This document shows positions 372 through 32,190 of a stretch of DNA of 35,003 nucleotides, piece by piece. A program made the translations under genes and the position numbers. The notes under the pieces were generated by a model, which was not told the origin of the DNA, searched no databases, and was given only the letters and a program-made list of their open reading frames with translations. Source of the DNA: an uncultured Candidatus Peribacteria bacterium (GTDB taxonomy: Bacteria > Patescibacteriota > Gracilibacteria > Absconditabacterales > Absconditicoccaceae); NCBI GenBank assembly GCA_964510755.1, contig CAZECU010000001.1, forward strand, positions 1 through 35,003, written 5' to 3'. Position 1 is the first letter of the stretch. Every line of letters starts with the position of its first letter.

Positions 372-1904
372 TTAATTTTTTACTAGTGAATGCCCTGTCA
401 TCTCAGCAGGGATAGCTATCCCCATAATATCTAGTACGGTAGGTGCTATATCTGAGAGTCCTCCACTCGCTTGCAAAGCTTGCGGTTTGCCATGACTCAT
501 ATACCACATAGGTACAGGATTCATACTATGTGCAGTAATGGGTTCTTGTGGTGTGCCCATATCATCACTATTTCCATGATCGGCAGTGATAAGCAAATCA
601 ATATTTTCCTTGTCACAGAAGGCAACAATATCTTGCATGATAGTATCCAGTTTTTGGATAGCTTTGATCACTGCGTCCATCTTACCTGTATGCCCTACCA
701 TATCTCCATTGGCAAAATTTACCACAACAAAATCAAAATCTTTGGCATACGCAATATATTGATCGTAAATTTCCTGTGCTGACATTTCTGGATCCAAATC
801 ATACGTCGCTACTTTGTGTGAAGGCACAAGAATATCTTTTTCTCCATTAAACACTATCTGTCTATCTCCATTAAAAAACTTCGTGACGTGAGCAAATTTT
901 TCTGTCTCTGCGAGATGAAGTTGGCGCAGTTCTTGATGAGAAATTACTTCTGATAAAGTGTTTTTGATCTCCATAGGCTTGATAAAGAGTGGTCACTCAT
1001 ACTCCTTGAAATATTGTGTCATCGCTACAAAATACAGGTTATCAAGTTTTTTTGTCATAAATCCTGAGCTTCGTGCAGCATATTCTTTGGCGTTGGACTT
1101 GTCCATAGAAACCATTATCGCTTGGGTCAGTTGTCTTGCTCTATCTGATCTGAAGTTGAGATGAAATACTGCATCACCACTTTCTATCTGATCTCACCAT
1201 GTAAAACTCACAGGCTTGATAAACTCGTCCGTGATACCTTGTTCGTATTGTTTGGCAATATATTCACTTGGTGTGTCACTCGTTTGCAATTGTCCAAACA
1301 TAATTTCATCATATGATTTCTGGATTCTGTCTCGATTGTTGTCTCTATCCATGCCATAATATCTGCCTGCTAAGCTTGATATCTTGACGTTGGGATATTT
1401 TTGCAAAAATATTTTGAAATCATCCATAAGCTCTAACATGCTATTTGGTGCAAGATCTCTTCCATCTCCAAACAAATGTAATGATACCGTAATATCACTT
1501 GGGATCAATGGAATAATCTTTTGGAGATGAGTATCCATCGCATGCACACCACCTGGTCCGAAGAGCTGAATCAAATGAAGTATAGAATCATGTTTTTTGC
1601 AATGTTGGATCCCCGCCACAAATTCTGGCAACTGAGCAAAACTTCCATCATCCAGCATATCTTCTATCTCTACGAGATTTTGTTTGATAATTCTGCCTGA
1701 CCCGATTGTCATATGCCCTACTTCGGAATTTCCCATCTGTCATTCTGGTAATCCTACTGATCTTCCAGAAGCATTGAGCGATGCATATGTTTGAGAAAAT
1801 AGTTTTTTGAACAGTGGAGTATCTGCTTGTGTGATTCCATTTTGTGCAGGAGTTTTTGTGTTGATTCCAAATCCATCTAAAATAATAAGTGAGAGTTTTT
1901 TCAT
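372..1904 (-). CDS. gpmI: 2,3-bisphosphoglycerate-independent phosphoglycerate mutase (510 aa, table 25)
   Basis: ORF pieces 372-974 and 1194-1736 plus the N-terminal piece share one frame. I translated the 975-1193 gap and found no TAA/TAG. Motifs: MKKLSLIILDGFG, LPEGQMGNSEVGH (that G is TGA 1737-1739), NFRSDRARQL, ITADHGN. Three in-frame TGA codons (993, 1194, 1737). Confidence 0.93.
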
Positions 1905-2045
1905 AGCAATAAAGGGGAAAATAAATTTATAACGATGATGATAGTTATTTCCTAGGAAAATTCAACCGCTGTCTTTGTGTACAATCATCATACTCTATGC
2001 GTGCGGATCATTGGAATATTCCTCTCTCCTTCTTTTGGTCTCTTC

Positions 2046-3590
2046 CTATTCCATCTCTACAAACATTGTTTTGCTTCTATACTGGAGTGCTTCAGCGAGA
2101 TGCTGTATACTTACAGATTCTTGTCCTTGGATATCTGCAATAGTCCTGGCAAGTTTCATTGTACGATGGACTACTCTGGTAGACAAGGTGAGTTTTTTGG
2201 CGGCATCAGCAAGAAATTTTTTACTCTCCTCATCCAAGGGAATCAATTCGTCGATGTGTTTGGATGTGATCTGCGCGTTGGACGTGATAGCAAGTCAGGC
2301 AAATCTTTTTTGTTGGAGTTTCCAAGCGTTGATCACTTTGTCTCTGATACTCATTGAGCTTTCTTCTCAGATGTTGTTGAGAATCTTGTCGATATCTTCT
2401 CTGGGTATCTCCAAAATCATATCAATCCTATCCAACAATGGTCATGATATTTTGCTCTGATAACGCTTGATATCCATTAGCGAACACCCACATGATTTTT
2501 CTGGATCTTTGTAATAGCCACATTTGCACGGGTTCATCGCACCGACAAACATAAAATCCGCAGGATACTGGATCGTTCCAGCCACACGTGAGATGACCAC
2601 AGATTTGTCTTCCAATGGCTGACGCAATACTTCCAATACTTCTCTAGGAAACTCTGTCACTTCATCAAAAAATAAAATACCTTTGTGTGCCAAACTCACT
2701 TCTCCTGGCGTCAAATGTGCACCGCCTCACACAATAGAAATCTTGGAAGCGGTATGGTGTACTTGACGAAATGGTCTTGCAGTGATCAGTGGCAATGTTT
2801 TGTTGAGTTTACCGACCAACGAATATACTTGACTGACCTGCAAGATTTCTTCGAATCCCAATGGAGGCAAAATACTTGGCAACGCTTTGCTCAACAATGT
2901 TTTGCCACTACCAGGAGCTCCTATCATGATGACGTTGTGTAGTCCGGCAGCAGCTATCATCAGCGCTCTCTTGGCCATCAGCTGTCCTTTGATTTGTCCA
3001 AAATCTACTTCGTGAGTAGTGGTATGCTGGTATAATGTTTGGATATCTTTGGCTTGATCTATACCCTCTAATGGTTTACCTTCTACAAAATATCCTATCA
3101 TCTGATCAAAGGTCGCGATAGGATATATATGAATTCATGGGACGTATTCCAATTCATAGAGATTTTCTTCTGGCACGAAAAAATGTTTGTATCCGTGTGA
3201 CATAGCACTAATGACTGATGGCAGAAGTCCATTTACCCTCTTGATCTGTCAGTCGAGACCTAACTCTCCAAAAAACAAATATTCTTGTGGTATCAACGGA
3301 ATCTTGTCTTCAAAAATCAAAAACAATATAGCTACTGCCATCGGGAGATCAAAACTTGTCCCTATTTTTTTGATATCAGAGGGAGATAAGTTGAGGACTA
3401 TTTTTCTGTTGGGGAGAGGGATGCCAGCATTGCGAAACGTAGCTCTCAAACGTTCTTTGGACTCTTTGATAGCAGCATCTGGCAATCCCACGATTTCTAT
3501 GGTAGGCAAAGATTTGCTCGAATCTGCTTCAACAATAATCTCATGTCACTCCAGTCCCACATTGGCGTATGTTTTGATTTTTTGGATCAT
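2046..3590 (-). CDS. comM: Mg-chelatase-like AAA+ ATPase, ComM/YifB family (514 aa)
   Basis: Four ORF pieces in one frame. N-terminus [33 protein letters not shown], Walker [13 protein letters not shown], and [11 protein letters not shown] with its G encoded by TGA 2442-2444. I checked the 2247-2441 gap and found no TAA/TAG. Confidence 0.9.
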
Positions 3591-3692
3591 TATACAAAAA
3601 AAAGATACTAAAATGTAGTATCTCATACCCGCAATTTGTACTGATTGGCAACGTGTATATTGTAGTTATTTGCCCTACAAAATCAACACCAC

Positions 3693-4193
3693 TTATTTTT
3701 TTCTTTGTCTATAGGGTTTGTTTGAAGCTTTTTTGGCTGACTGTGTTTTGGGCACAAAATATTTGGCGGATTTTTTTTGTTGGTGATAAAAATCTTTTTG
3801 GGCAGCAGCGATTGCTTGTTCACTCCAATCTTCACTTTCCATGCGAGCTATAAGCTGCACATCTATAGATTGTATCAGTTCTGTTTGATTTCCCAGCCCA
3901 TTTGGGAAACATTCTTGTGCCTGAGCCAATTTTCGTTCTATTGTCCCTACTACTGGCACATTTGCTTCTTGTGCACCTTCTTGCATGAGCTGATGGTGAT
4001 GGAGAATGTCCTTATCTTCATGAATACCTGCTCCCACGATTATAATTTTTCCCTCTGATCATGATATATGGTCTAATACTTCTATCAATTGATGAATTGT
4101 CTTGGTTGTGTCAATAGTTGCATGACCTGGAACTATTATGATGATAGGTTCAGTAGTATTACTATTTTGGTTTGGTTTGTGTGTATGCTTCAT
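3693..4193 (-). CDS. Hypothetical protein (166 aa), basic C-terminal tail
   Basis: ORF 3693-4037 extends upstream through one in-frame TGA (..DHISGSEGKIIIVGAGIHED..) to an ATG at 4193. No family recognised. Confidence 0.6.
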
Positions 4194-4265
4194 ACTATAA
4201 TGTGATATATAAAGTAGTATGATAATAGTACATATTTTTTTTATTTTTGCAAAATATCGCTTAGT

Positions 4266-4466
4266 TTATTCATGATGTAATGACGTAGTGAATAATGATG
4301 GATTATAATGTTTGGTATACGCTTTGTGAAAATCTTTGACATGAATTTTGAGTCCTTTGCAAACAAACCTATCCACTCTATGTTTGGTAATAATCTTTTG
4401 GACTACAGGCAAGGTGATACCAAAAATATCTGCTATCTCTTGGGGAGAACGATATGGCTTCTGCAT
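4266..4466 (-). CDS. Small helix-turn-helix DNA-binding protein (66 aa, excisionase/MerR-like HTH)
   Basis: Intact ORF. SPQEIADIFGITLPVVQKIITKHRV resembles an HTH_17/excisionase-type motif. The upstream frame closes at a TAG without another ATG. Confidence 0.55.
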   Translation of the reverse strand: MQKPYRSPQEIADIFGITLPVVQKIITKHRVDRFVCKGLKIHVKDFHKAYTKHYNPSLFTTSLHHE

Positions 4467-4474
4467 TTGCTTGA

Positions 4475-4597
4475 TTACAAATAAAAAGATTTGTGATGAA
4501 TGAGCAACAGCACTTCGTCATCTTCTTCCTCTTCCTCTCTATCTATAGCATCATCATCTTCGTCATAATCGACCTCATCATCATTATGGATAGTCAT
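4475..4597 (-). CDS. Possible 40-aa highly acidic micro-protein (MTIHNDDEVDYDEDDDAIDREEEEEDDEV..)
   Basis: ATG at 4597 to TAA at 4475-4477, ending 8 nt before the HTH gene start. Too short for the ORF track. There is no homology evidence. Confidence 0.25.
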   Translation of the reverse strand: MTIHNDDEVDYDEDDDAIDREEEEEDDEVLLLIHHKSFYL

Positions 4598-4669
4598 AAG
4601 ATATTGTAGGTAAAGATATTTAGCATATTGATTGACGAAATCCATCTATCACACTCACGAAATAAAAAT

Positions 4670-5692
4670 TTATTTGCTGATCGTATATTGTTGTTCGACT
4701 GCTTGATAGACGATATTGGATGCTTGATGGAGAACTTCTTTGAGTTTGTCCCAATTATATCCTCTGGTCATCAAACACAGTACATAAGGATGCTCAGGAT
4801 AATACACTATTCCACAATCATGAAGTTGCATCCTTTCTATCCCATTGGATCACCAGATAGATCTTTCGCCAAATTTGTGAGAGACGGCTATGCCTTTGTC
4901 TGAGACTCCAGCTACCAATCCATCTTTAAACTCTGTTTGGGTGAGAAGTTCTAGTACTTGCTGAGAATGCTCTTTGGTGAGGTAAGATGCATTATACAAT
5001 ACTCTAAAAAATGAAGCATAATCTACCACTCTGATATTGTTGTCAAAACTACCTTCTACTACGGGAGGGAAAACAATTCCCACGTCTGCAAATACAGCTT
5101 TGAATTGTTCAGTATCAATATTCTTTTCCAAAAAAACCGATGCTTCATTGTCAGAATATTTGATCATATGTTTGATAATATCAATAATCTTGTAGCTATG
5201 ATTTGCCTGTAATCTCTCTGCAGGAGCGATATTTTGTCTATATTCGTCTGCAGAACCATTGGGAGTAAATTTGATAGTAGTCTGTAAATATCCTGGTTGT
5301 TGTTCGTCCTGCTTGAAATATGCCATCAACAAAGGAAGCTTCATCAAACTGGCTGGAGAAAACAACTCTTTTTCTTCTATTCCAAACCAGTTTCCATTGG
5401 TAAGATTTCTAAAATACACGGACAAATTAAGAATATCTCATTTGGCTACCAGTGAGTTCTCATAAGCTTTCAATTCATTTTCTACATTGATCGCTTTATT
5501 TTCCATCAATATATCTCCTAACTCTGTAGAGAGCACAGGATTTATCAATGACTTTTCTATACTCTTTTGGTGATGATAATTTTTTGTGCCTATCAATATC
5601 GCCACAAGGAACATTACTCCAACTGCTACGATAATGGACGTAGAACGAATAGGCGTTTTTGGTGCTTCTTGATTTTTGGTTGCTGGCGTCAT
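4670..5692 (-). CDS. Membrane-anchored serine hydrolase, class A beta-lactamase / PBP-like (340 aa)
   Basis: ORFs 4850-5425 and 5438-5743 plus a C-terminal piece are in one frame, joined by TGA at 5438 and 4850. N-terminal TM helix, SxxK (SPASLMK), SDN (YSDN) and an HKFG (KTG-like) motif. ATG 5692 is preferred over the GTG at 5743. Confidence 0.8.
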
Positions 5693-5802: not shown

Positions 5803-6141
5803 TTAAATCAAAGAGATCAAGGATTCTAACTCCTCTCGCTCTGTTTCTATTATTTTTTGCTTGGCTGGAGATATTTCAGTTTCTCCAATTGTTTTGAGTA
5901 GTGTTGCGTCGTAAACGCGAGATATTTTCCCATCTATCAGCATTACTGCCACAAAATTTCCTGCTTGAGATATCCAGCGCAACGCTGGATTCCCCGGCTT
6001 GTCCGTATCAACAGATAATTTTTTTTGCTCCCACGTGTTGTACGCTATAGCAAAAGGGGTTTTTCCTTTGTGTGCTGCTTTTTCTTTTTGTGCTGCTTGG
6101 AATGCAGCAACAATTTTTGAATTTTTTGGTGTCTCTTTCAT
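5803..6141 (-). CDS. Hypothetical protein (112 aa), no UGA codons
   Basis: Intact ORF with its own TTGACT-N16-TATACC promoter-like sequence upstream and terminators on both sides. No family recognised. Confidence 0.65.
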   Translation of the reverse strand: MKETPKNSKIVAAFQAAQKEKAAHKGKTPFAIAYNTWEQKKLSVDTDKPGNPALRWISQAGNFVAVMLIDGKISRVYDATLLKTIGETEISPAKQKIIETEREELESLISLI

Positions 6142-6220
6142 AGCTTTTTTGTTTTTAATTTTGAAATGGTATACTTATTTTGTTTCAAAAGTCAACCCGA
6201 TGAGGATATACCTTTTGTAT

Positions 6221-6247
6221 AAAAAAAACGGAGAGAAAAACTCCCCG
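6221..6247 (-). terminator. Rho-independent terminator after paralog gene 6255-6809
   Basis: CGGAGAG-AAAAA-CTCCCCG hairpin preceded by A8 on the plus strand (T8 after the stem on the minus strand). Confidence 0.6.
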
Positions 6248-6254
6248 AATATTT

Positions 6255-6809
6255 TTATTCAATCGTCCTCTCGCAAAAGCCAATCTCCCATTCTGGTTGA
6301 AGTTGGTCATTTTTATAGAATTTGATTAAGGCAAACAATCTGCCAGAATAGTTTAGCCTTATCTCTTCCATAGTAATAGTTGAGGATAATGGAAATCCGA
6401 GCATATTGATAGTGAGAGAATATCCCTTTGGTGTGTTGGATACGTTTTTGAAAGATTTACGTATAAATCTTTTTAACTTTTTTTCCTCACGTTTGGATAC
6501 TTCCATGTGAAAACACCAGTTTTCAATTGCCTCATCTAGATGATCCATTTGTTGAAGAGTCAGATATTTAGACATTACTTGACCCATAATCAACGAGTGC
6601 CTTTCTTTGAAGAGCCAGAAACTAATCTCCCAGATAGCCCACAAAAGGACAAGTATCAACAGCGTGATACAGCCAACGAGAGTCGTTAGTTTAGCGAAAT
6701 TTGGATCCCTGGACAATATGGTCATTGAACCAATAAACGCACAGACTGCTACCCATCTCATGACTATTACTACAGCTCTTCTGAATCTTAATTTTTCTTG
6801 ATTTTTCAT
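6255..6809 (-). CDS. 2-TM membrane protein with ~110-aa C-terminal domain, array paralog 1 (184 aa)
   Basis: I trimmed the track ORF 6255-6896 to ATG 6809 (MKNQEKLRF..) because 6810-6896 is the conserved promoter cassette. Two hydrophobic helices and a PKGYSLTINML motif. No UGA. Confidence 0.7.
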   Translation of the reverse strand: MKNQEKLRFRRAVVIVMRWVAVCAFIGSMTILSRDPNFAKLTTLVGCITLLILVLLWAIWEISFWLFKERHSLIMGQVMSKYLTLQQMDHLDEAIENWCFHMEVSKREEKKLKRFIRKSFKNVSNTPKGYSLTINMLGFPLSSTITMEEIRLNYSGRLFALIKFYKNDQLQPEWEIGFCERTIE

Positions 6810-6927
6810 AATGTTTATTTTTTTGTTAATGTTTTGTTTGTTTATTATCTTATATATATATTTTATATTATTTGTCAATACTTGTTTTTTGAACAAAAAA
6901 AATCCGGGAAATATCCCCGGGTTTATG
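6810..6927 (-). promoter_or_regulatory. Terminator-promoter cassette, copy 1
   Basis: On the minus strand: stop codon, CCGGGGATATTTCCCGG hairpin (6904-6920) plus T-run, TTGACA (6873-6878), about 16 nt, TATATA, then an A-rich leader. The ~50-nt block is identical to the copies at 7531-7582 and 8221-8270. Confidence 0.7.
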
Positions 6928-7473
6928 TTATACTTCTATCTCTGTTGCTATTAATTTTCCGAGATAACCTAATTTTAAGTGACCTTTAAGAATTTTTCCA
7001 TCATATTCCAAACAAATATAATGAATGAATTTTTTGGCCATATAATCATTACCATAAGCTTTAGCATCAAGAAATATCTCTATCTTATATCCTTTACGTG
7101 GATAGTTATCATACAATACTTTCTTATCTGATTTATACAACACACTATAAAGAAAAATTGTATATAGTCGATCTGGATTATTGGGTTGCTCATTAGCTTG
7201 AGTTTTAAAAGGAAGAATTTTATATAATTCTTCCACCATAATCATGAGATGTTTGATTTGCTCTGGTGATAGTTCTTTGGACCAATTTTCACGTTTGTAT
7301 ATGAACTCACTTAGCAGCCAGAATATAATCATACCACTATAGATGATGATTTTGCTTGTGCTCCACAATTCCCCTTCGATCAGGTCAAATACTATTCCGA
7401 CGATACACACTGCGGCCATCAATCTACATCCAACGACCATGCTTTTGTTGTTTCTTTGTCTTTGTGTTTCCAT
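6928..7473 (-). CDS. 2-TM membrane protein with C-terminal domain, array paralog 2 (181 aa)
   Basis: Intact ORF. METQRQRNNK.., then ..CRLMAAVCIVGIVFDLIEGELW.., a second TM helix, and a C-terminal domain with RKGYKIEIFLDA. No UGA. Confidence 0.75.
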   Translation of the reverse strand: METQRQRNNKSMVVGCRLMAAVCIVGIVFDLIEGELWSTSKIIIYSGMIIFWLLSEFIYKRENWSKELSPEQIKHLMIMVEELYKILPFKTQANEQPNNPDRLYTIFLYSVLYKSDKKVLYDNYPRKGYKIEIFLDAKAYGNDYMAKKFIHYICLEYDGKILKGHLKLGYLGKLIATEIEV

Positions 7474-7591
7474 TGTTGTATTATTTTGTTGTTATTATTT
7501 TATATTTTTATATCTTATACATAATTTATATCTTTTGTCAATACTTGTTTTTTGAACAAAAAAATCCGGGAAATATCCCCGGATATAATTT
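7474..7591 (-). promoter_or_regulatory. Terminator-promoter cassette, copy 2
   Basis: Hairpin at 7566-7582 plus T-run, TTGACA (7536-7541), N16, TATAAG. Same block as copies 1 and 3, with the A-run one nucleotide shorter. Confidence 0.7.
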
Positions 7592-8161
7592 TTATGAAGC
7601 TCCAATGATTCTAATATGATCATCTTCCCACTGGTGTTCTATTGTTTTTTGAACTTTTTGTCTTACATCTTGATAGGTTAAAATCGCTTTTACTTTGTTG
7701 CCTTGACGTTCAATATAAATATTAGACATGAATGCAACAGGTGGCATCACACATCGAACATCTCGTATTTCATAAATGTCACCCTGATCGCTATCCAAAA
7801 ATATTTCCATTTCATATCCTTTTTCATGCGTATTTATGATTTTGCGACATGCATTAGATTGTACCATTTTTGTGAATTTATCACGTCTTTTTCTCGTGGT
7901 TCTGACCGGGTAAACGTCGTAAAAAAATTCTAAAGCGATTTTTAAATCATTTTTTTGTTGGGAAATTGATTTACCTCCTCGATGGTAGAGAATTTCACAG
8001 ATAATCCAGACTATCCCGGAAGCAATATATACTATCAATATATGGCGTTTCCATGAACCTTCCATGAGATCAAATCCCATACTTATTAAGCAAGCAGCTG
8101 TCCACAATCTGATCGTTATGATTATTTCTTTTGTGGTTTGTTGTCGTTGATTTGTTTCCAT
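7592..8161 (-). CDS. 2-TM membrane protein with C-terminal domain, array paralog 3 (189 aa)
   Basis: Intact ORF. METNQRQQTTK.., then ..IRLWTAACLISMGFDLMEGSW.., a second TM helix, and a C-terminal domain with EKGYEMEIFLDS. No UGA. Confidence 0.75.
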   Translation of the reverse strand: METNQRQQTTKEIIITIRLWTAACLISMGFDLMEGSWKRHILIVYIASGIVWIICEILYHRGGKSISQQKNDLKIALEFFYDVYPVRTTRKRRDKFTKMVQSNACRKIINTHEKGYEMEIFLDSDQGDIYEIRDVRCVMPPVAFMSNIYIERQGNKVKAILTYQDVRQKVQKTIEHQWEDDHIRIIGAS

Positions 8162-8277
8162 TGTTTTATTTTTTTTATTATTACTTTTTTATTTTTATAT
8201 CTTATATATAATTCATATCTTTTGTCAATACTTGTTTTTTGAACAAAAAAAATCCGGGAAATATCCCCGGGTTTATG
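8162..8277 (-). promoter_or_regulatory. Terminator-promoter cassette, copy 3
   Basis: Hairpin at 8254-8270 plus T8, TTGACA (8223-8228), N16, TATAAG, an A-rich leader, then ATGGAAACA. Confidence 0.7.
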
Positions 8278-8505
8278 CTATGAATAATGTATTTTCTTGT
8301 ATTTTTCGCAGAGATGACATATCTCTACAATGATCCAAAATAGTAGATAAGCGCCTGAAAGCACTTTACCAGCGAAGTTACCGATATCTTTAACATCTTC
8401 GCTTGAAGAACATAATGTAACTACAAAGAGTACTGCAAAAATTACTGCAAACTTTCTAATCATGTGACGAATTTTTTTGTTTTCGTCGGTGTTATTTGTT
8501 TTCAT
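8278..8505 (-). CDS. Small 2-TM protein (75 aa), first gene of the array; lacks the C-terminal domain
   Basis: Intact ORF MKTNNTDENKKIRHMIRKFAVIFAVLFVV.. with two hydrophobic segments. It is followed by cassette copy 3. Confidence 0.6.
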   Translation of the reverse strand: MKTNNTDENKKIRHMIRKFAVIFAVLFVVTLCSSSEDVKDIGNFAGKVLSGAYLLFWIIVEICHLCEKYKKIHYS

Positions 8506-8569
8506 ACTGTTTTTATTTATGCTACTTGTATATCTTTTTTGTTGTAAAAGTCAATCTTACGAAACATAA

Positions 8570-9889
8570 TTATTCTTCTCTTCTATACGTTTGTTTGCTG
8601 AGATATTTGGTCGCATAAAAAATAATCATCGTCTCGATACCTACATAGACTAGTACCAAGAAAAAAATCAGTTCTCCTGGTAATGATGTTTGGATGAGGA
8701 GGATGATATTTACTATCAACGCTGCCATGCTGGAAATGATCCAATATATATAATCCGTTTTGGTAAATATCTTGGCCAACATCGGTATCTTGTGTGCATA
8801 AAAAATCATTGCCGCGCTATAAATATTTCGAAAGATTCATCGACTCACTACTGAGCCTATATTTCCCTGAAATACAGTAAACAGACTTACATAGATAGCG
8901 AAGTTGATAACGAGAAATACTACGAGATTTTGGATCACACTATTGTATCAGATTTTTTTGAGACAGATGACATTGGTGACAAAGGTGGCTATTACCGCTC
9001 GATAGAGCAGATGATTGACCACAGCAAAATCGCCCACATGTGTACCATACCACACCATCAAAATCACAATCAAGACAATGTTGAATATCTCCAATATCTG
9101 TTTGGTCCACGCTGGCATCGCCGTCAAAAAGGTATAGAGTATTTCCATGGTTTTGGAATTGAAATATTTTTTGGGAGCGGTAATTCTTTCTCCTGCAAGA
9201 ATACGTCTCACGGACATCTCTTTTTTGGTTTCGAGGGTTTGAGGGGTATGTTGGAAAATTTTGAAAATCAGGATGTAGATCCCTGTGAGAAGGAGTCCAT
9301 TTATCGTGAGAGCCAGATATATATTTTTGATCTGATCCAACACTACGAGAAAAATTGTCCCCAGCGCCAATACTCCCAACGCATATCGAAATGATTTGGA
9401 GAGGTCACGATAGAGACCAATCACAAAAATAAAAAATGCTACTACTGCAAGGTTTCCGACCCGTATCATCATAAATATCGTATACATCGTTGACCGTCAT
9501 CACAAGGCGAATCATAGAATAAGTAAGAACAACAAGGATAAATAATATCCTACGGGAAAAATAACTTTGCCGTCTTTATAGTCTGCAAGATAAGAAAAAA
9601 TCCACAACAGTAGATTGATCCCTATCAGCCAGAGTGCGTTGACAATCACATCCATACCAAAAAAATTACCAACTCCGACCAATCATGCCAAGATAATTAC
9701 CCATGCTATATATAAACTATATTTTCTCGCTAACTGAAATCAGTGAACTTTTATCGTTTGCGTAGCTCCATAATATCCAAAAAATGCTGCGATAAAGAGC
9801 AGTGGTAAAAATGCAAGATACCACAAGCCTATCCCGTAAAAAAATAGCACAAATCCTACTACCACTATCGACAACAACAACAAAGCCAT
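8570..9889 (-). CDS. Polytopic integral membrane protein (439 aa, roughly 10-12 TM), unknown family
   Basis: ORFs 8570-8809 and 8948-9487 plus sub-threshold pieces up to ATG 9889 share one frame. I translated it codon by codon: 7 in-frame TGA codons, including the tandem TGA-TGA at 9497-9502, and no TAA/TAG. Confidence 0.75.
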
Positions 9890-9929: not shown

Positions 9930-11069
9930 TTATAGAGCAAAATTGGTTGTAATGCTCCAGATTAACACGGCGTGCAATCCTATCGCTATGAGCCAAATGA
10001 GTAATAATCTTCCTATATTTTTGTTTCTCATATATCTGATACAAAAAACTACTATTCCTCGGATACCGATATCCATGAGCACATATGCGAGCCCAAATTG
10101 GTTGGCGACAAACAGATAACGATCATTGGCAATAGTATATACGCCAAACGCTGCCATACCCATAATCAGGATAAGTTGTACAATATCGGGAGCTCTATAC
10201 AATATTCAGGGTAGATCCATCATCTTGGCAAGCATATCTTTTTGGAGAAACTTTCGCATGATAGCTGAAGTACCAAACAATGAATAATCTTTGTTTTTGA
10301 GAGATATTTTGGCACCAAGTGATTGTAATATTTTGATATTTTCTAATTTTTCGGCCTCTCTTGAGATATCCTGTTGCGTCACCAAGGAGGTAGGAGAAAT
10401 AGGTGATGCACTTGGTAACTGTGCGTAATATATACTGTCTATACGATCTAATAGATCAAATAGTTGCTGAATAGTCGCGGTGATTTTTTCGACGTTGTTT
10501 CCCATACGCAATTTTTTGAGCTCTTCGGTTAGTGTTTTGATCTGTTGCAACTCTTGAGTACTGATGAGTCCTGTAGCTCTTTTTGTAGTAGTATCAATCT
10601 TTTCAAAGATTTTTGGGAGCGTATTTTTGGCTATTTCTAGCTGTGCATCTTGGTAGACATCATGGGTTGTTGTTTTTTGTGTTTGTATAGCCTGAGCTTG
10701 CTGAGTATGTGCTGCTAGATTTGCTGCTTTGGCGTTTGCTATATAGAGATCCGAAGTTTGTGAAGAGATCGACTGCGTATAGGTATTTATCTCTATGAGA
10801 TCAAATCAGAGGGTTATCAACATGATTGCTGCTGTCTGGATATCTTTGTATGGAGTAACTATTTGTATATGTTTATTTTTGTAGGCAATCGTAGCAAAAA
10901 TATCTCCAAAATTTTTTTTGTCTTGAGAAAATTCTTTGAGTGAAAGAATCAAAATATGGTAATGCTCAAAAATCTGCCTCGCTAGATCTGATGTCTCTAC
11001 GTCCATGAGTAATGCTACGGTATGTTGTCTATCACTGTCTTGTTTTATACCATTTATACTAAAAGTCAT
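9930..11069 (-). CDS. Hypothetical protein (379 aa): soluble N-domain, Q/T/A-rich coiled-coil-like middle, three C-terminal TM helices
   Basis: ORFs 10806-11069, 10206-10550 and 9930-10202 are in one frame, joined by TGA at 10806 and 10206. I translated the intervening stretch and found no TAA/TAG. Runs from ATG 11069 to TAA 9930. Confidence 0.7.
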
Positions 11070-11375: not shown

Positions 11376-12185
11376 ATGAAAAAAGTTTTTTGGATACTCT
11401 TTGTGCTTATACTTCTTGTCGGTACAGGATTTATGTATCTGGTCAAAAATCCTCAGATGCCATTTTCACAAAAAGTATTTACTACTATAGGACTAGATAT
11501 TAATCAGCATCCAGGGTTGTTTAACCTCTCAGATGACCTAGGGACAGGCGAAGATCTTACAAACTGTACAAGTTATTTCGATGGATGTAATACCTGTATG
11601 GTATCGGGTGGTGTCATCGGTGGATGCACCAAAATGCTTTGTAAAAACCCAACACAACCAACATGTCTTGCATACAAAAATACTGGTATCGACCTCACCA
11701 ATTGTGTCAGTTATTTTGATGGATGCAACACCTGTAGTGTCAAAGATGGCAAACCTGATGCGTGTACTCTTATGTATTGTGAAACTCCAGGAGAACCAAA
11801 ATGTAATGAATACGCAAGCGGTACAACCAACAACGAAAATGTTGGACTCGCAAATCCAGCTTCCACAAATTGTGTAAACAATGGAGGAAAACTAGATATT
11901 GTCACTTCATCAGATGGTGGACAACAAGGTATGTGTACATTGTCCGATGGGACCGTTTGTGAAGAACGAGCATATATGAAAGGAACATGTGTAGCCAAAA
12001 ATCAAGATAATGATGAAACCAATACTTCTGTCTGTACTATGGAATATGCCCCCGTCTGTGCCAGCGTTCAAGTACAATGTATCAAAGCTCCTTGTGACCC
12101 TATCCAGCAAACCTTTGGCAATACCTGTATGATGAAAGCCAACAAACACGCGATCTATCTTCATGATGGAGAATGCGCTAAATAA
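11376..12185 (+). CDS. Secreted Cys-rich modular protein (269 aa): 2x YFDGCNTC repeat, DUF333-like domain, Kazal-like domain
   Basis: N-terminal signal/anchor MKKVFWILFVLILLVG. Two repeats of LTNC[TV]SYFDGCNTC.V..G....CT.M.C. GLANPASTNCVNNGGKLDIVTSSDGGQQGMCTLSDGTVCEE resembles DUF333. CTMEYAPVCAS...TFGNTCMM..A....LHDGEC resembles a Kazal inhibitor domain. About 27 Gly codons, none of them UGA. Confidence 0.85.
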   Translation: MKKVFWILFVLILLVGTGFMYLVKNPQMPFSQKVFTTIGLDINQHPGLFNLSDDLGTGEDLTNCTSYFDGCNTCMVSGGVIGGCTKMLCKNPTQPTCLAYKNTGIDLTNCVSYFDGCNTCSVKDGKPDACTLMYCETPGEPKCNEYASGTTNNENVGLANPASTNCVNNGGKLDIVTSSDGGQQGMCTLSDGTVCEERAYMKGTCVAKNQDNDETNTSVCTMEYAPVCASVQVQCIKAPCDPIQQTFGNTCMMKANKHAIYLHDGECAK

Positions 12186-18779: not shown

Positions 18780-19463
18780 ATGAACAAAGATATGTTTAAT
18801 AATAAATATCGTATAAAGTCTATCAGACTTCCTTATTGGGATTACCATAATGTTTGATATTATTTTGTCACTATTTGTACAAAAGATAGACAACACTATC
18901 TTGGCAATATAGAAAATGGTGAAATGCTTCTTTCTGACATAGGTAAAATAGCCCATCAATATCGATTGGATATTCCCAAACATTTCCCTCATGTATCGTT
19001 GGATGCATTTGTAATTATGCCTAATCACCTGCATTGAATTATATCAATTAATGAAAAAATATCTGAAAATAAAATAAATAAAAATATAATCGGGAATGCG
19101 GTAGAGACGCAAAATATTGCGTCTCCTAAAATAAATGAAATTAAAAATATTGTATTTCCTAAAATAAATAAAATTAAACAATATGGGGATGATTTTAAAG
19201 AGACGCATAATCATGCGCCTCTACCAGCAACAACCAACAATAAAAACCCAAACATATTTTGACCTCAAATAAAAAATTTATGATCGATTATTCGTGGCTT
19301 TAAATCTGCTGTTACAACCTATGCAAAAATACATACTATCGAATTTGCTCGACAACCATGATATTATGAAAATATTATTCGTACTATAGATGCTCATAAA
19401 AAAATCTCCGAATATATCGAAAACAATCCGAAACAATGGAATAATGATAAACATTATATATAA
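18780..19463 (+). CDS. IS200/IS605-type Y1 (HUH) transposase, REP-associated tyrosine transposase (RAYT)-like (227 aa)
   Basis: YRIKSIRLPYWDYHNVGYYFVTICTK, the HUH motif VIMPNHLHGII, FGPQIKNLGSIIRGFKSAVT, RQPGYYENIIR and YIENNPKQW (COG1943-type). Five in-frame TGA-Gly codons. The central region carries two GC-rich palindromes (19104-19125 and 19199-19222). Confidence 0.85.
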
Positions 19464-21284: not shown

Positions 21285-22070
21285 TTACTTGAAATGTTTC
21301 ATACAATCTTGATATCCTTGGTCGTAAGTCTTTTGGATATTTTTTTTGTTGGTATCTAGTATCTTGAGGATAATATCTGGATAAAACACATGATCAATTA
21401 ATGGTAGACTATGTACCATATCATGCCTCAATAAAATTTCAAATGACACAGATAAAATATCTACTATGGTTTTGATTGGCTGATTTTCTTTGAACTTGTT
21501 GAGTGATATACCTATGAGTTCTTGTTTCGGATACGCTTTTTTGGCTAGAGATACGGGAAAGTTGTTGGATGTCCCTCCATCAATATACATATGATTTTTA
21601 TATTCTATAGGAGGAAATACTCCCGGTATTGCAATACTACCCAACAAAATAGGGACTAGTTCTCCTTTGTCAAACAACACAAATTTTGCTGTATGAATAT
21701 CTGTTGCGCCAATATATACTTTTTTGGGGAGATCTGAAATATATTGTGGCAAATCCTTGGTAAAACGCTGTTGTAATGTCGTATTTTTGAGTAAACTCTT
21801 TTTGGAAAAAATATTGAGTGCTGTAATATTAAAGAGCTTTTTGGTATTCATAAATTCTTGAAAGATTTGATCTGCACTATATCCAGCTGCCCGATAACTT
21901 GCTATAATCGCCCCCACACTTACTCCATATATTGATGCAATCTTATCTTTGTATCCTAACTGTTCCAATCATTTGAGTACCCCCAATGCATAAAATCACC
22001 TTGTTCCTCCTCATGAGATAACGAGCGTATATTTTTTGCTTTTTTTTGTGATGAAGGAAAATAGTTTCAT
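21285..22070 (-). CDS. Patatin-like phospholipase (261 aa)
   Basis: ORF 21285-21968 extends upstream through 3 TGA codons to ATG 22070. Oxyanion motif ISGGGTRG (TGA at 22011-22013 and 21996-21998), nucleophile elbow GVSVG, and a DGG catalytic Asp motif. Confidence 0.9.
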
Positions 22071-30894: not shown

Positions 30895-32190
30895 CTAGTC
30901 CTTTAGTAACATTACTTTATACTGTTTTTTGCCTTTTCTCAATACTACAGCATTGTTGATCAATGCATCTTTGGTAAGTATATGTTGGATATCTTCTATT
31001 TTTTGTTCGTTGCTATATAATGATCCGGTAGCAATCAGCTTTTTTGCTTCACCATTGGATTCGCACAATCCTGATTGGACAAATAAATCTATCAGTTTCC
31101 ACTCTGTCCCTGATAGTTGACCACCACCTGTCTCTTTTTGTAGAGCAAGAAGATCACTAGATGACATGGCTTGTATTGCCTGCAAAGTATCTCCCTGACC
31201 AAATAAAATATCGGAAATTTTGAGTGCTTGTTGTGCTGCATCTTTGCCATATACGGTACTTACCAAATAATTTGCCAACTGTTTTTGTCCGTATCTTTGC
31301 TCAGGAGCTTCTTGATGTTTTTGGGCAATTTCTTGGATACTATTAAAATCCAAGAGCGTAAATATCTTGAGATAAGGTGCTACGTTTTCATCTGCGGTAT
31401 TCATAAAATATTGGTATGTGAAATATGGACTCGTCTTGTTGGGATCAAGAAACAACGCATTTCATTCAGATTTTCCAAATTTTTTGCCAGACGCATCAGT
31501 AATCAAAGGGAAGGTCATCACGTAACTCTCTGCCTGATTTCCTATTTTTTTTCTAATCATCTCGGTCCCCGTCACCATATTTCCTCGTTGATCTGATCAC
31601 CCAATTTGGAGCTTGACGCCGTTGTTTTCGTACAACGTAAGAAAATCATTTCCTTGCAAGAGCATATAACTAAACTCGGTATAGGTGATTCCCATATCTG
31701 GATTTTCTATTCTTTTTTTGATGGATTCTTTGCTCAGCATATTGTTGACGGTGATATATTTTCCTGTCGTTCTAAGGAAATCAAATACATTCATGTTTTT
31801 GTAAAAATCATAGTTATTGACTACTTCAAAAGAAAAATCTACTCCGCTAATAGTTTTGAGATTTTGTAAAATATGTTGGACTTGGAGGGTAATCGCTTTT
31901 TCATTTTTTCTTAACGTCTCCTCATCTAGCATCACTCTATCACTTGTTTTGAAACTTGGATCTCCGATCATCCCTGTTGCTCAGCCAATTACCATGACGA
32001 AGGTATTGTTTCTTTTCATAAAATTGACCGCTGTCATGAAACTCACAAAGTTTCCCAATTGCAAAGAATCTGCTGTCGGATCAAATCCACAGTAAAATTT
32101 TTGGCCTCATTTTTCGTAGAGATCAAACAACTTCTCATCAGTAAACTGGTAGACCATACCGCGTTTTTCTAATTCTTCACGTAAATGCAT
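30895..32190 (-). CDS. tyrS: Tyrosine--tRNA ligase (431 aa) with C-terminal S4-like domain
   Basis: ORFs 30895-31455 and 31597-31971 plus the N-terminal piece are in one frame. Motifs: [16 protein letters not shown] (HIGH position), LQIGGSDQ (second G is TGA 31597-31599) and KFGKSEGNA (KMSKS). Confidence 0.93.

Follow-up and report, generated by a model that had tools for sequence, protein, structure and literature searches.

The window analysed here is the whole stretch of 35,003 nt at positions 1 to 35,003 of the forward strand of contig CAZECU010000001.1 (assembly GCA_964510755.1), from a genome that is placed in the candidate division SR1 (Absconditabacteria). In the region 6221-8569 it carries four co-oriented genes on the minus strand, which encode predicted membrane proteins of 75, 189, 181 and 184 amino acids (aa; slots 1 to 4) and are separated by three closely similar spacers, each with a predicted terminator and promoter (Table 1). 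Comparison with related loci, designated here by L numbers, indicates that this is very probably a strain-variable array of self-contained gene cassettes, with exchange of cassettes, on an SR1 chromosome.

Table 1 Features of the array and its borders, in positions of the window (ORF, open reading frame)
Feature	Coordinates	Strand	Basis
Promoter-like region of slot 1 (TTGACT...TAGCAT), not of the cassette type	8519-8554	-	scan, repeat search
Slot 1, 75-aa protein, two transmembrane helices, no C-terminal domain	8278-8505	-	ORF list, hydropathy
Spacer 1, predicted hairpin 8254-8270, T8 run, -35 element 8228-8223, -10-like TATAAG/TAAGAT	8162-8277	-	scan, alignment
Slot 2, 189-aa protein, two transmembrane helices and predicted alpha/beta cytoplasmic domain	7592-8161	-	ORF, hydropathy, model
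Spacer 2, predicted hairpin 7566-7582, T7 run, -35 element 7541-7536	7474-7591	-	scan, alignment
Slot 3, 181-aa paralog	6928-7473	-	ORF, hydropathy
Spacer 3, predicted hairpin 6904-6920, T8 run, -35 element 6878-6873	6810-6927	-	scan, alignment
Slot 4, 184-aa paralog, mosaic between strains	6255-6809	-	ORF, hydropathy, model
Predicted terminal terminator, hairpin CGGGGAGTTTTTCTCTCCG and T8 run, sequence unlike the cassette hairpin	6229-6247	-	scan
Gene of a 112-aa soluble protein, with its own predicted promoter (6166-6195) and terminator	5803-6141	-	scan, repeat search

The four reading frames lie exactly where a preliminary description, made from the sequence alone, had placed them. The architecture that it proposed, with two hydrophobic helices, is borne out by Kyte-Doolittle hydropathy, which gives a basic N-terminus followed by two hydrophobic segments in each of the four proteins, and by AlphaFold models of the 189- and 184-aa proteins (pLDDT 68 and 72, from shallow alignments of 7-8 sequences). 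The models have two long helices, of which the second transmembrane helix (TM2) runs on into a cytosolic helix, followed by one or two more helices and a 5-6-stranded antiparallel sheet. Beyond the two-helix membrane anchor, the long forms would thus carry a variable cytoplasmic helix-plus-beta-sheet domain of ~110 aa. The positive-inside rule, applied by eye, suggests an N-in/C-in topology, in which the N-terminus and the variable C-terminal domain would be cytoplasmic and 6-12 residues would face outward. In the alignment, residues M1, W52 and E56 are invariant in 11 of 11 family members, forming a W-x3-E motif inside TM2, while the long members all have N110, G115, Y116 and I120, which makes the KGY motif of the preliminary description a real one.

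The proposed homology of the paralogs also holds, at levels that differ between pairs. The 189- and 181-aa proteins are related at BLASTP E = 3e-18 with 33% identity. No relation of the 184-aa protein to its paralogs is detected by BLAST, and a profile of the 189-, 181- and 190-aa proteins aligns with the profile of the 184 class at an hhalign probability of 95.6% (E = 1e-8, 152 columns). The short 75-aa class is more weakly connected, with a probability of 78% and E = 1.8e-5 (hhalign) to the 184 class, over the loop and TM2 only.

With the 189+181 profile, HMMER was run exhaustively against 1.84 billion representatives and returned only the query and one near-identical fragment. Word-indexed searches of 5.8 billion proteins retrieved alleles from the same SR1 clade only: for the 189- and 181-aa proteins, these were the protein itself and one fragment, and for the 184-aa protein, four allelic clusters on contigs syntenic with the window. 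The two-helix family is without relatives beyond this SR1 clade by sequence, by profile or, as described below, by predicted fold. Two candidate assignments were rejected. The entry-exclusion protein TraS (NF010304) reached at best 16.3 bits (E = 0.007), against a curated cut-off of 173 bits, and matched 3 of 11 members in the transmembrane region only, so that it was treated as compositional noise. A class II holin fits the outline of the 75-aa protein, but no endolysin gene is adjacent, the nearest SLT-domain gene lies ~15 kb off, and the one PHROG match in a lysis category is a chance-level i-spanin match to the 181-aa protein (E = 0.19), with no holin family matched.

The spacers are 116-118 nt long and 80-92% identical overall, whereas the paralogous coding sequences are 40-53% identical at the nucleotide level. 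They have in common a core of ~50 nt, composed of CCGGGGATATTTCCCGG, a run of seven or eight T and GTTCAAAAAACAAGTATTGACAAA; in spacer 1, GTTCAAAAAACAAGTATTGACAAA is accompanied by an A-rich leader that is particular to the 189 gene. Both observations had been made in the preliminary description, that a block of ~50 nt is nearly identical in all copies and that the regulatory DNA is better conserved than the coding DNA, and both were confirmed, the T7/T8 run length being the sole difference within the core. The hairpin CCGGGGATATTTCCCGG and a 29-nt promoter block each occur in three copies in the window, all of them in the three spacers, where 0.00-0.01 would be expected by chance, and no further copies were found in the window with up to three mismatches. 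Within the window and ~60 kb of related loci, the cassette is confined to the array and is not a genome-wide repeat. An exact-pattern scan for the cassette gave no match in GTDB genome contigs, none in viral contigs (IMG/VR) and one chance match in metagenome contigs, to the eukaryotic titin-like contig L002, while Rfam gave one sub-threshold chance match to the cassette and no known RNA.

A terminator hairpin with T-run was called by consensus scans in each of the three spacers. Spacers 1 and 2 also gave a promoter call, TTGACA-N18-TAAGAT; the TTGACA and the -10-like TATATA/TAAGAT of spacer 3 were read from the sequence, outside the scan calls. Each array gene would have its own predicted terminator and promoter and form an independent transcription unit, as had been suggested before. 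The signals of the first and last array genes differ from the cassette type. Positions 8528-8554 and 6169-6195 form a direct repeat of 27 nt (81% identical) with a TTGACT -35 element, and its two copies correspond to the predicted promoters of the slot-1 gene and of the 112-aa gene just past the array. Copies of one predicted promoter thus flank the array on both sides, and this may record the way in which the array came to be inserted. In relatives, the last array gene is followed by a degenerate fourth cassette core that directly abuts the promoter of the 112-aa gene (L003 10556-10700, L012 4562-4706 and L007 4612-4745, compared with window 6142-6254). This core reads AAAAAACAAGTATTGACAAAA in L003 and L012 and TTGTCAAAA in L007, where the hairpin is a variant too, and it is deleted in the window.

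Copies and strains also differ in the length of simple repeats (T7 or T8, A6 or A8, and (TA)n). The (TA)n tract between the -35 and -10 elements of spacer 3 shows a strain difference of 2 nt, with a spacing of 18 or 16 nt (window 6850-6872, compared with L003 9885-10000 and L001 691-807, and with L012 3883-4006). Such differences could tune or switch promoter strength. Phase-variable loci are marked by hypermutable simple repeats, and the tracts present here are short.

The composition of the array varies between syntenic loci. In the order of the slots, the proteins have 75, 189, 181 and 184 aa in the window, 71, 189, 181 and 187 aa in L005, and 70, 189, 190 and 184 aa in L003; L012 lacks slot 3 (71, 189 and 184 aa) and L007 lacks slots 2 and 3 (73 and 184 aa). 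The arrays therefore contain two, three or four co-oriented genes of 70-190 codons, and the variation in copy number between strains that the preliminary description had considered does exist. Slot-1 alleles of relatives have 50-58% amino-acid identity even beside a neighbouring gene that is 97% identical at the nucleotide level, as in the close relative L007, whose slot-1 allele is 58% identical. The slot-2 protein has 99% amino-acid identity (synonymous divergence, dS, of 0.009-0.018) to copies in lineages with a flank dS above 1. Slot 3 is 100% identical in L005, holds an unrelated 190-aa paralog in L003, is absent in L012 and L007, and is 5'-truncated in L001. Slot 4 is a mosaic, with a common N-terminus, two allelic types of the TM2/juxtamembrane patch and two types of C-terminal domain. 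Throughout this variation the core is kept, in 13 of 13 spacers from seven loci, and in these the 3' leader moves as part of the downstream gene, and the few nucleotides ahead of the hairpin as part of the upstream gene.

The truncated slot 3 of L001, a JGI contig, is an observation of its own. There (1-330 and 688-690) the 181-type gene lacks its 5' end and is joined to unrelated DNA, and what lies upstream of this junction has no match among the sequences of this analysis. In place of the stop codon TAA the gene has TGA, which would be read through under genetic code 25. This gene is probably a decaying copy, or the contig is chimeric.

Pairs of loci were compared to locate the junctions of gene gain, loss and replacement, and these lie within the conserved spacer. 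L012 and L003 are 98-99% identical along 10 kb, and slot 3 is cleanly absent from the former, with the junction inside the cassette core. The single spacer of L007 is a hybrid of the three (c1/c2/c3). L003 and L005 are ~100% identical over 3.7 kb upstream and 99% identical downstream of the array, but they carry non-alignable paralogs in slot 3 (190 and 181 aa), and slot 4 shows a swap of its C-terminal half between them.

The strongest evidence for exchange comes from the comparison of the window with L003 and L005. Their housekeeping flanks are 76-79% identical to those of the window, with a dS of 1.13-1.77, whereas from 8270 to 6790 the window is 99-100% nucleotide-identical to L005 over ~1.45 kb. 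This block runs from spacer 1 through the 189 gene, spacer 2, the 181 gene and spacer 3 into the first codons of the 184 gene; slot 2 has a dS of 0.009 here, and slot 3 a dS of 0. Compared with L003, the identical block ends at spacer 2 and restarts at spacer 3. A 1.45-kb block of 99-100% identity between flanks with a dS of 1.1-1.8 suggests that the exchange of these cassettes is recent. Mosaic breakpoints are found inside single-copy coding sequence as well (the TM2 patch and the C-domain of slot 4), and the identities between loci are graded (100%, ~93% and ~77%), which together speak for an exchange that is real and repeated. The same arrangements are present in several independent assemblies.

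The conservation of regulatory relative to coding DNA had led to the suggestion of diversifying selection on the proteins. The data do not bear this out, since for divergent alleles the ratio of nonsynonymous to synonymous divergence (dN/dS, Nei-Gojobori) is 0.2-0.6 and never above 0.6, with dS high or saturated. Because these ratios go together with a high dS, the variation is a shuffling of old alleles and paralogs, and not rapid positive selection in place.

A second hypervariable patch separates L003 and L005, strains that are otherwise 98-100% identical, at L003 16500-17750. It includes the 5' part of an ABC-transporter gene, which is 54-62% identical, and L005 has an extra gene with the domain PF05635 ('23S rRNA intervening sequence protein'). 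Across their genomes, blocks of 86-92% identity alternate with blocks of 100% between L003 and L005, which indicates frequent recombination.

The array occupies a site directly downstream of a conserved gene for a 437-aa membrane protein. In the distant SR1 genomes L008 and L009, the ATPase gene, the DUF333 gene, the 380-aa gene and the 437-aa gene are syntenic with the window, whereas the cargo that follows them differs. L008 carries the type I restriction-modification (R-M) genes HsdM (PF02384) and HsdS (PF01420) (1264-5558, minus strand), and L009 carries a MazG-like gene, a Schlafen-type helicase (PF09848) and a helix-turn-helix protein with a SocA/Panacea antitoxin (679-5314, minus strand). 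No members of the two-helix family were found in the distant genomes L008-L011. Since its cargo in L008 and L009 differs from that of the window, the site behaves as a variable, defence-island-like hotspot. Its resemblance to a defence island lies in this core-gene junction, which holds known defence genes (R-M, toxin-antitoxin (TA) and helicase) elsewhere and the array in the lineages of the window and of L003/L005; the difference is that the cargo of the array is a family without a PADLOC match.

On the other side, the 112-aa gene is present in the lineages of the window and L007 and of L003, L005 and L012, and it adjoins the array in the window, L004, L006, L007 and L012. Its product, with 61-76% amino-acid identity between lineages, has the conserved core GNPALRW…AVMLIDGKISRVYDA and is without an assigned family, and none of the distant SR1 loci L008-L011 holds a significant match to it. 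Whether this gene is part of the array unit is uncertain. Upstream of the array, at 11376-12185 (+), lies the gene of the secreted Cys-rich DUF333 protein, which has an internal duplication (DLTNC.SYFDGCNTC occurs twice), uses TGA in 0 of 26 Gly codons and differs by lineage in content and in length (150-286 aa in L003, L005, L008 and L009). Further away, a 227-aa reading frame with an H-x-H-like motif, 'NHLHGIISI', lies between a Nudix gene and an nrdG-like gene (18780-19463, +). An IS200/RAYT-type transposase was considered for it; it has no Pfam match at E < 0.001, and we make no such claim.

The placement of the genome in SR1 agrees with the flanking ATPase, whose closest GTDB relatives are 'candidate division SR1' and 'Absconditabacterales' metagenome-assembled genomes, at 64-78% amino-acid identity. 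The genome uses genetic code 25, in which TGA encodes glycine; this point, like the exchange of cassettes between lineages, is absent from the preliminary description. Over the whole window, 24 genes contain 108 in-frame TGA codons between them (for example 8570-9889, 21285-22070 and 30895-32190). These fall on conserved glycines, such as those of P-loops, of the GGGxRG motif of patatin and of the GGATG motif of TyrRS, which indicates code 25. Read with table 11, most genes of the window look fragmented; they are open only with TGA as a sense codon. The same applies to the two membrane-protein genes that the preliminary description had recognised directly upstream of the array: 8570-9889 and 9930-11069 contain seven and two in-frame TGA codons, respectively, and stand as genes solely under this reading.

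The array genes differ from the rest of the genome in this respect, as TGA is used in 0 of 65 Gly codons of 10 distinct alleles (window 6255-8505; L003 8307-10555; L005 10001-10564; L007 3729-4611), compared with a genome-wide share of 17%. For the four array genes of the window alone, the absence of TGA has P = 0.0045 against this share. The avoidance could reflect a foreign origin, an effect on expression or chance.

In the explanation that we prefer, each unit would consist of a promoter, a leader, a small gene and an intrinsic terminator, and the core would have two jobs. In expression, it would end the transcript of the upstream gene and start that of the downstream gene, and this independence would insulate neighbours against gene gain or loss. 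In exchange, it would serve as a portable homology arm, to which the first 10-45 codons, being conserved, would also contribute, and at which homologous recombination with incoming or sister DNA, presumably of the RecA type, would lead to the deletion, insertion or replacement of whole or half genes. The variable cytoplasmic domain would confer specificity, and the membrane hairpin would be the effector or an anchor.

The most conjectural part of this explanation is the function. The one positive line of evidence on it is genomic context, namely the defence genes that this site carries in other SR1 genomes, and from it we tentatively suggest a role in defence or immunity, which might be exclusion of phage or foreign DNA, abortive infection, or immunity to a membrane-acting toxin. 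The preliminary description had compared the proteins with immunity, exclusion or abortive-infection effectors, and this comparison remains plausible, with contextual support from the defence genes found at the site elsewhere. The host-interaction role that it offered as an alternative is weakened, since the positive-inside rule would put the variable domain in the cytoplasm. The cassette-exchange array and the guess at its function, taken together as one explanation, could equally well stand or fall.

Several points weigh against this explanation. The array proteins gave chance-level matches only in Pfam, PHROGs, PADLOC and NCBIfam, no significant match in a sequence-profile search of the PDB, and no E-value below 0.01 with Foldseek against the PDB and BFVD, where the top matches were generic helix-on-sheet folds; the earlier failure to assign a family is thereby upheld. 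No recombinase, toxin or phage gene adjoins the array, and no dN/dS above 1 was found among the alleles (Nei-Gojobori). The array-specificity of the core was established over 35 kb of the window genome and is not proven genome-wide, the promoters and terminators are predicted from consensus matches, and the confidence of the models is moderate (pLDDT 68-72). The comparison loci are all metagenome contigs, in which repeats of ~50 nt can mislead assemblers; a literature search by run accession gave no sampling environment. In addition, expression could be the sole reason for the conservation of the core, and recombination at it an unselected by-product.

The foremost alternative is an ordinary, old tandem duplication, in which the spacers are kept alike only by purifying selection on a strong promoter and terminator, aided by local gene conversion, the deletions and replacements at the spacers are incidental unequal crossovers, and the proteins have a lineage-specific, non-defence membrane role, for example in the regulation of the envelope or of host attachment. 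The ancient divergence of the paralogs (40-53% nucleotide identity), the constraint kept in their dN/dS of 0.2-0.6 and the lack of a match to a defence family all agree with it, and so does the general mosaicism of L003 and L005 (86-100% blocks, with the patch at L003 16.5-17.7 kb), according to which recombination is not specific to this locus. It fits poorly with the presence/absence and non-homologous replacement of genes between strains whose array surroundings are 98-100% identical, with cassettes of dS near 0 across lineages whose flank dS exceeds 1, and with the R-M, TA and helicase cargo at the site in other SR1 genomes. Moreover, housekeeping genes are not normally so dispensable, and L007 keeps only two of the four. 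We consider this alternative unlikely.

The closest described analogue of the SR1 array is the orphan-immunity array of Bacteroidales. The rAID-1 system is described as a tyrosine recombinase with an array of short orphan-immunity genes, each of about 100-300 codons and all in one orientation, between which lie repetitive sequences that are conserved and 'reminiscent of integrons'; its content is strain-variable, and identical systems are common to co-resident species and mobilised between them (PMC12247911; bioRxiv 10.1101/471110). On a reading of this rAID or integron-like kind, the genes of the SR1 array would neutralise membrane-targeting toxins delivered by competitors and be collected by site-specific recombination at the intergenic repeat. 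The gross layout (two to four co-oriented genes of 70-190 codons and an intergenic repeat with a ~50-nt core in 13 spacers from seven loci) and the sharing across lineages are as in the rAID systems. We nevertheless find this reading improbable. No recombinase or integrase was found in Pfam scans of most non-housekeeping genes of the window or in the Pfam lists for genes within ~10 kb on each side of the array in L003 and L005, and this includes XerD-family tyrosine recombinases; the array members have no significant Pfam, NCBIfam or PADLOC match to immunity families, and the neighbourhood contains no toxin genes. The junctions resemble simple homologous crossovers in long stretches of identity, not the products of site-specific recombination, and the GC skew that is a feature of rAID-1 amounts here to a small gap (34.4% in the array genes, 36.8% in the other genes of the window). 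Phylum (SR1 belongs to the candidate phyla radiation, CPR) and genetic code also differ, and each SR1 spacer would be a complete terminator plus a consensus promoter.

Two other kinds of array share part of this layout. Like an integron, the locus is a row of exchangeable single-gene cassettes bounded by a repeated element that contains a hairpin. In contrast to an integron, it has no IntI integrase in the window or in the L003 and L005 flanks, and its cassettes carry their own predicted promoters, where integron cassettes are promoterless and depend on the common promoter Pc. The SR1 hairpin, a short GC stem followed by a T-run, presumably bears no resemblance to attC either. The tandem immunity arrays of Firmicutes, such as esaG/DUF600 and tsaI of Staphylococcus aureus, consist of divergent tandem paralogs, some of them membrane proteins, whose copy number varies through recombination between repeats. 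They adjoin a cognate toxin or secretion system and belong to recognised families, and they are not known to have a conserved terminator-promoter cassette.

It is still less probable that the genes are remnants of a prophage or mobile element, that is, moron-like self-transcribed genes for proteins such as superinfection-exclusion or holin-like two-helix proteins. A unit of promoter, gene and terminator is the textbook layout of phage morons, and the SR1 units would resemble them as autonomous, insulated units, judged by their predicted signals, that encode small accessory membrane proteins. The 75-aa protein has the two transmembrane helices and charged C-terminus of a class II holin, and the absence of TGA from 65 Gly codons, against 17% in the genome, would suit a phage origin. 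However, the array lies outside any prophage, with no flanking phage genes and with conserved synteny to chromosomal housekeeping genes; neither the proteins nor the cassette have a match in IMG/VR viral contigs, PHROGs give no significant one for the proteins, and no endolysin gene is adjacent. Unlike morons, the SR1 units stand in tandem and have one near-identical regulatory module in common. Membership among integrons, prophage morons, holins or TraS proteins thus fails in each case on at least one defining feature.

An assembly artefact, by which graph mis-joins through the ~50-nt core would have linked co-occurring SR1 populations, is highly improbable, since the recurrence of the arrangements in independent assemblies and samples, the breakpoints within unique coding sequence (TM2 patch and C-domain of slot 4), the graded and not all-or-none identities (100%, 93% and 77%) and a 10.4-kb Logan contig that spans a three-gene array outweigh the breaks of Logan contigs L004 and L006 exactly inside the core, a repeat length near assembler k-mer sizes and the metagenomic origin of all comparison loci.

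If the cassette-exchange explanation is carried to its full extent, the array would be a recombinase-independent 'plug-and-play' system, in which the ~50-nt module is selected both as an expression unit and as a portable recombination site, and by which divergent SR1 species trade new membrane-anchored defence or immunity proteins. This complete reading is a speculative one, and we hold it to be distinctly unlikely as a whole. Genes free of TGA might in such trade stay translatable across genetic-code boundaries, between phage, host bacteria and SR1.

CPR bacteria such as SR1 are mostly uncultured and have tiny genomes, and their defence and host interactions are largely obscure. For a CPR genome the evolutionary pattern found here is clean and unusual, although variable cassette arrays in general have precedents; what is new is the protein family, and what is known is the strain-variable cassette array in a hotspot. 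The locus is a compact and clean case of modular gene exchange, in which the exchanged unit would supply promoter and terminator itself and crossovers would take place in that very sequence. Should the function prove mundane, a natural model of insulated, swappable expression cassettes would remain. The near-identical cassettes beside synonymously saturated neighbours are direct evidence of recent gene flow in recoded SR1 bacteria, and a new membrane-protein family with an invariant Trp-x3-Glu motif, in a hotspot that otherwise holds R-M and TA genes, is a candidate for a new defence or immunity function.

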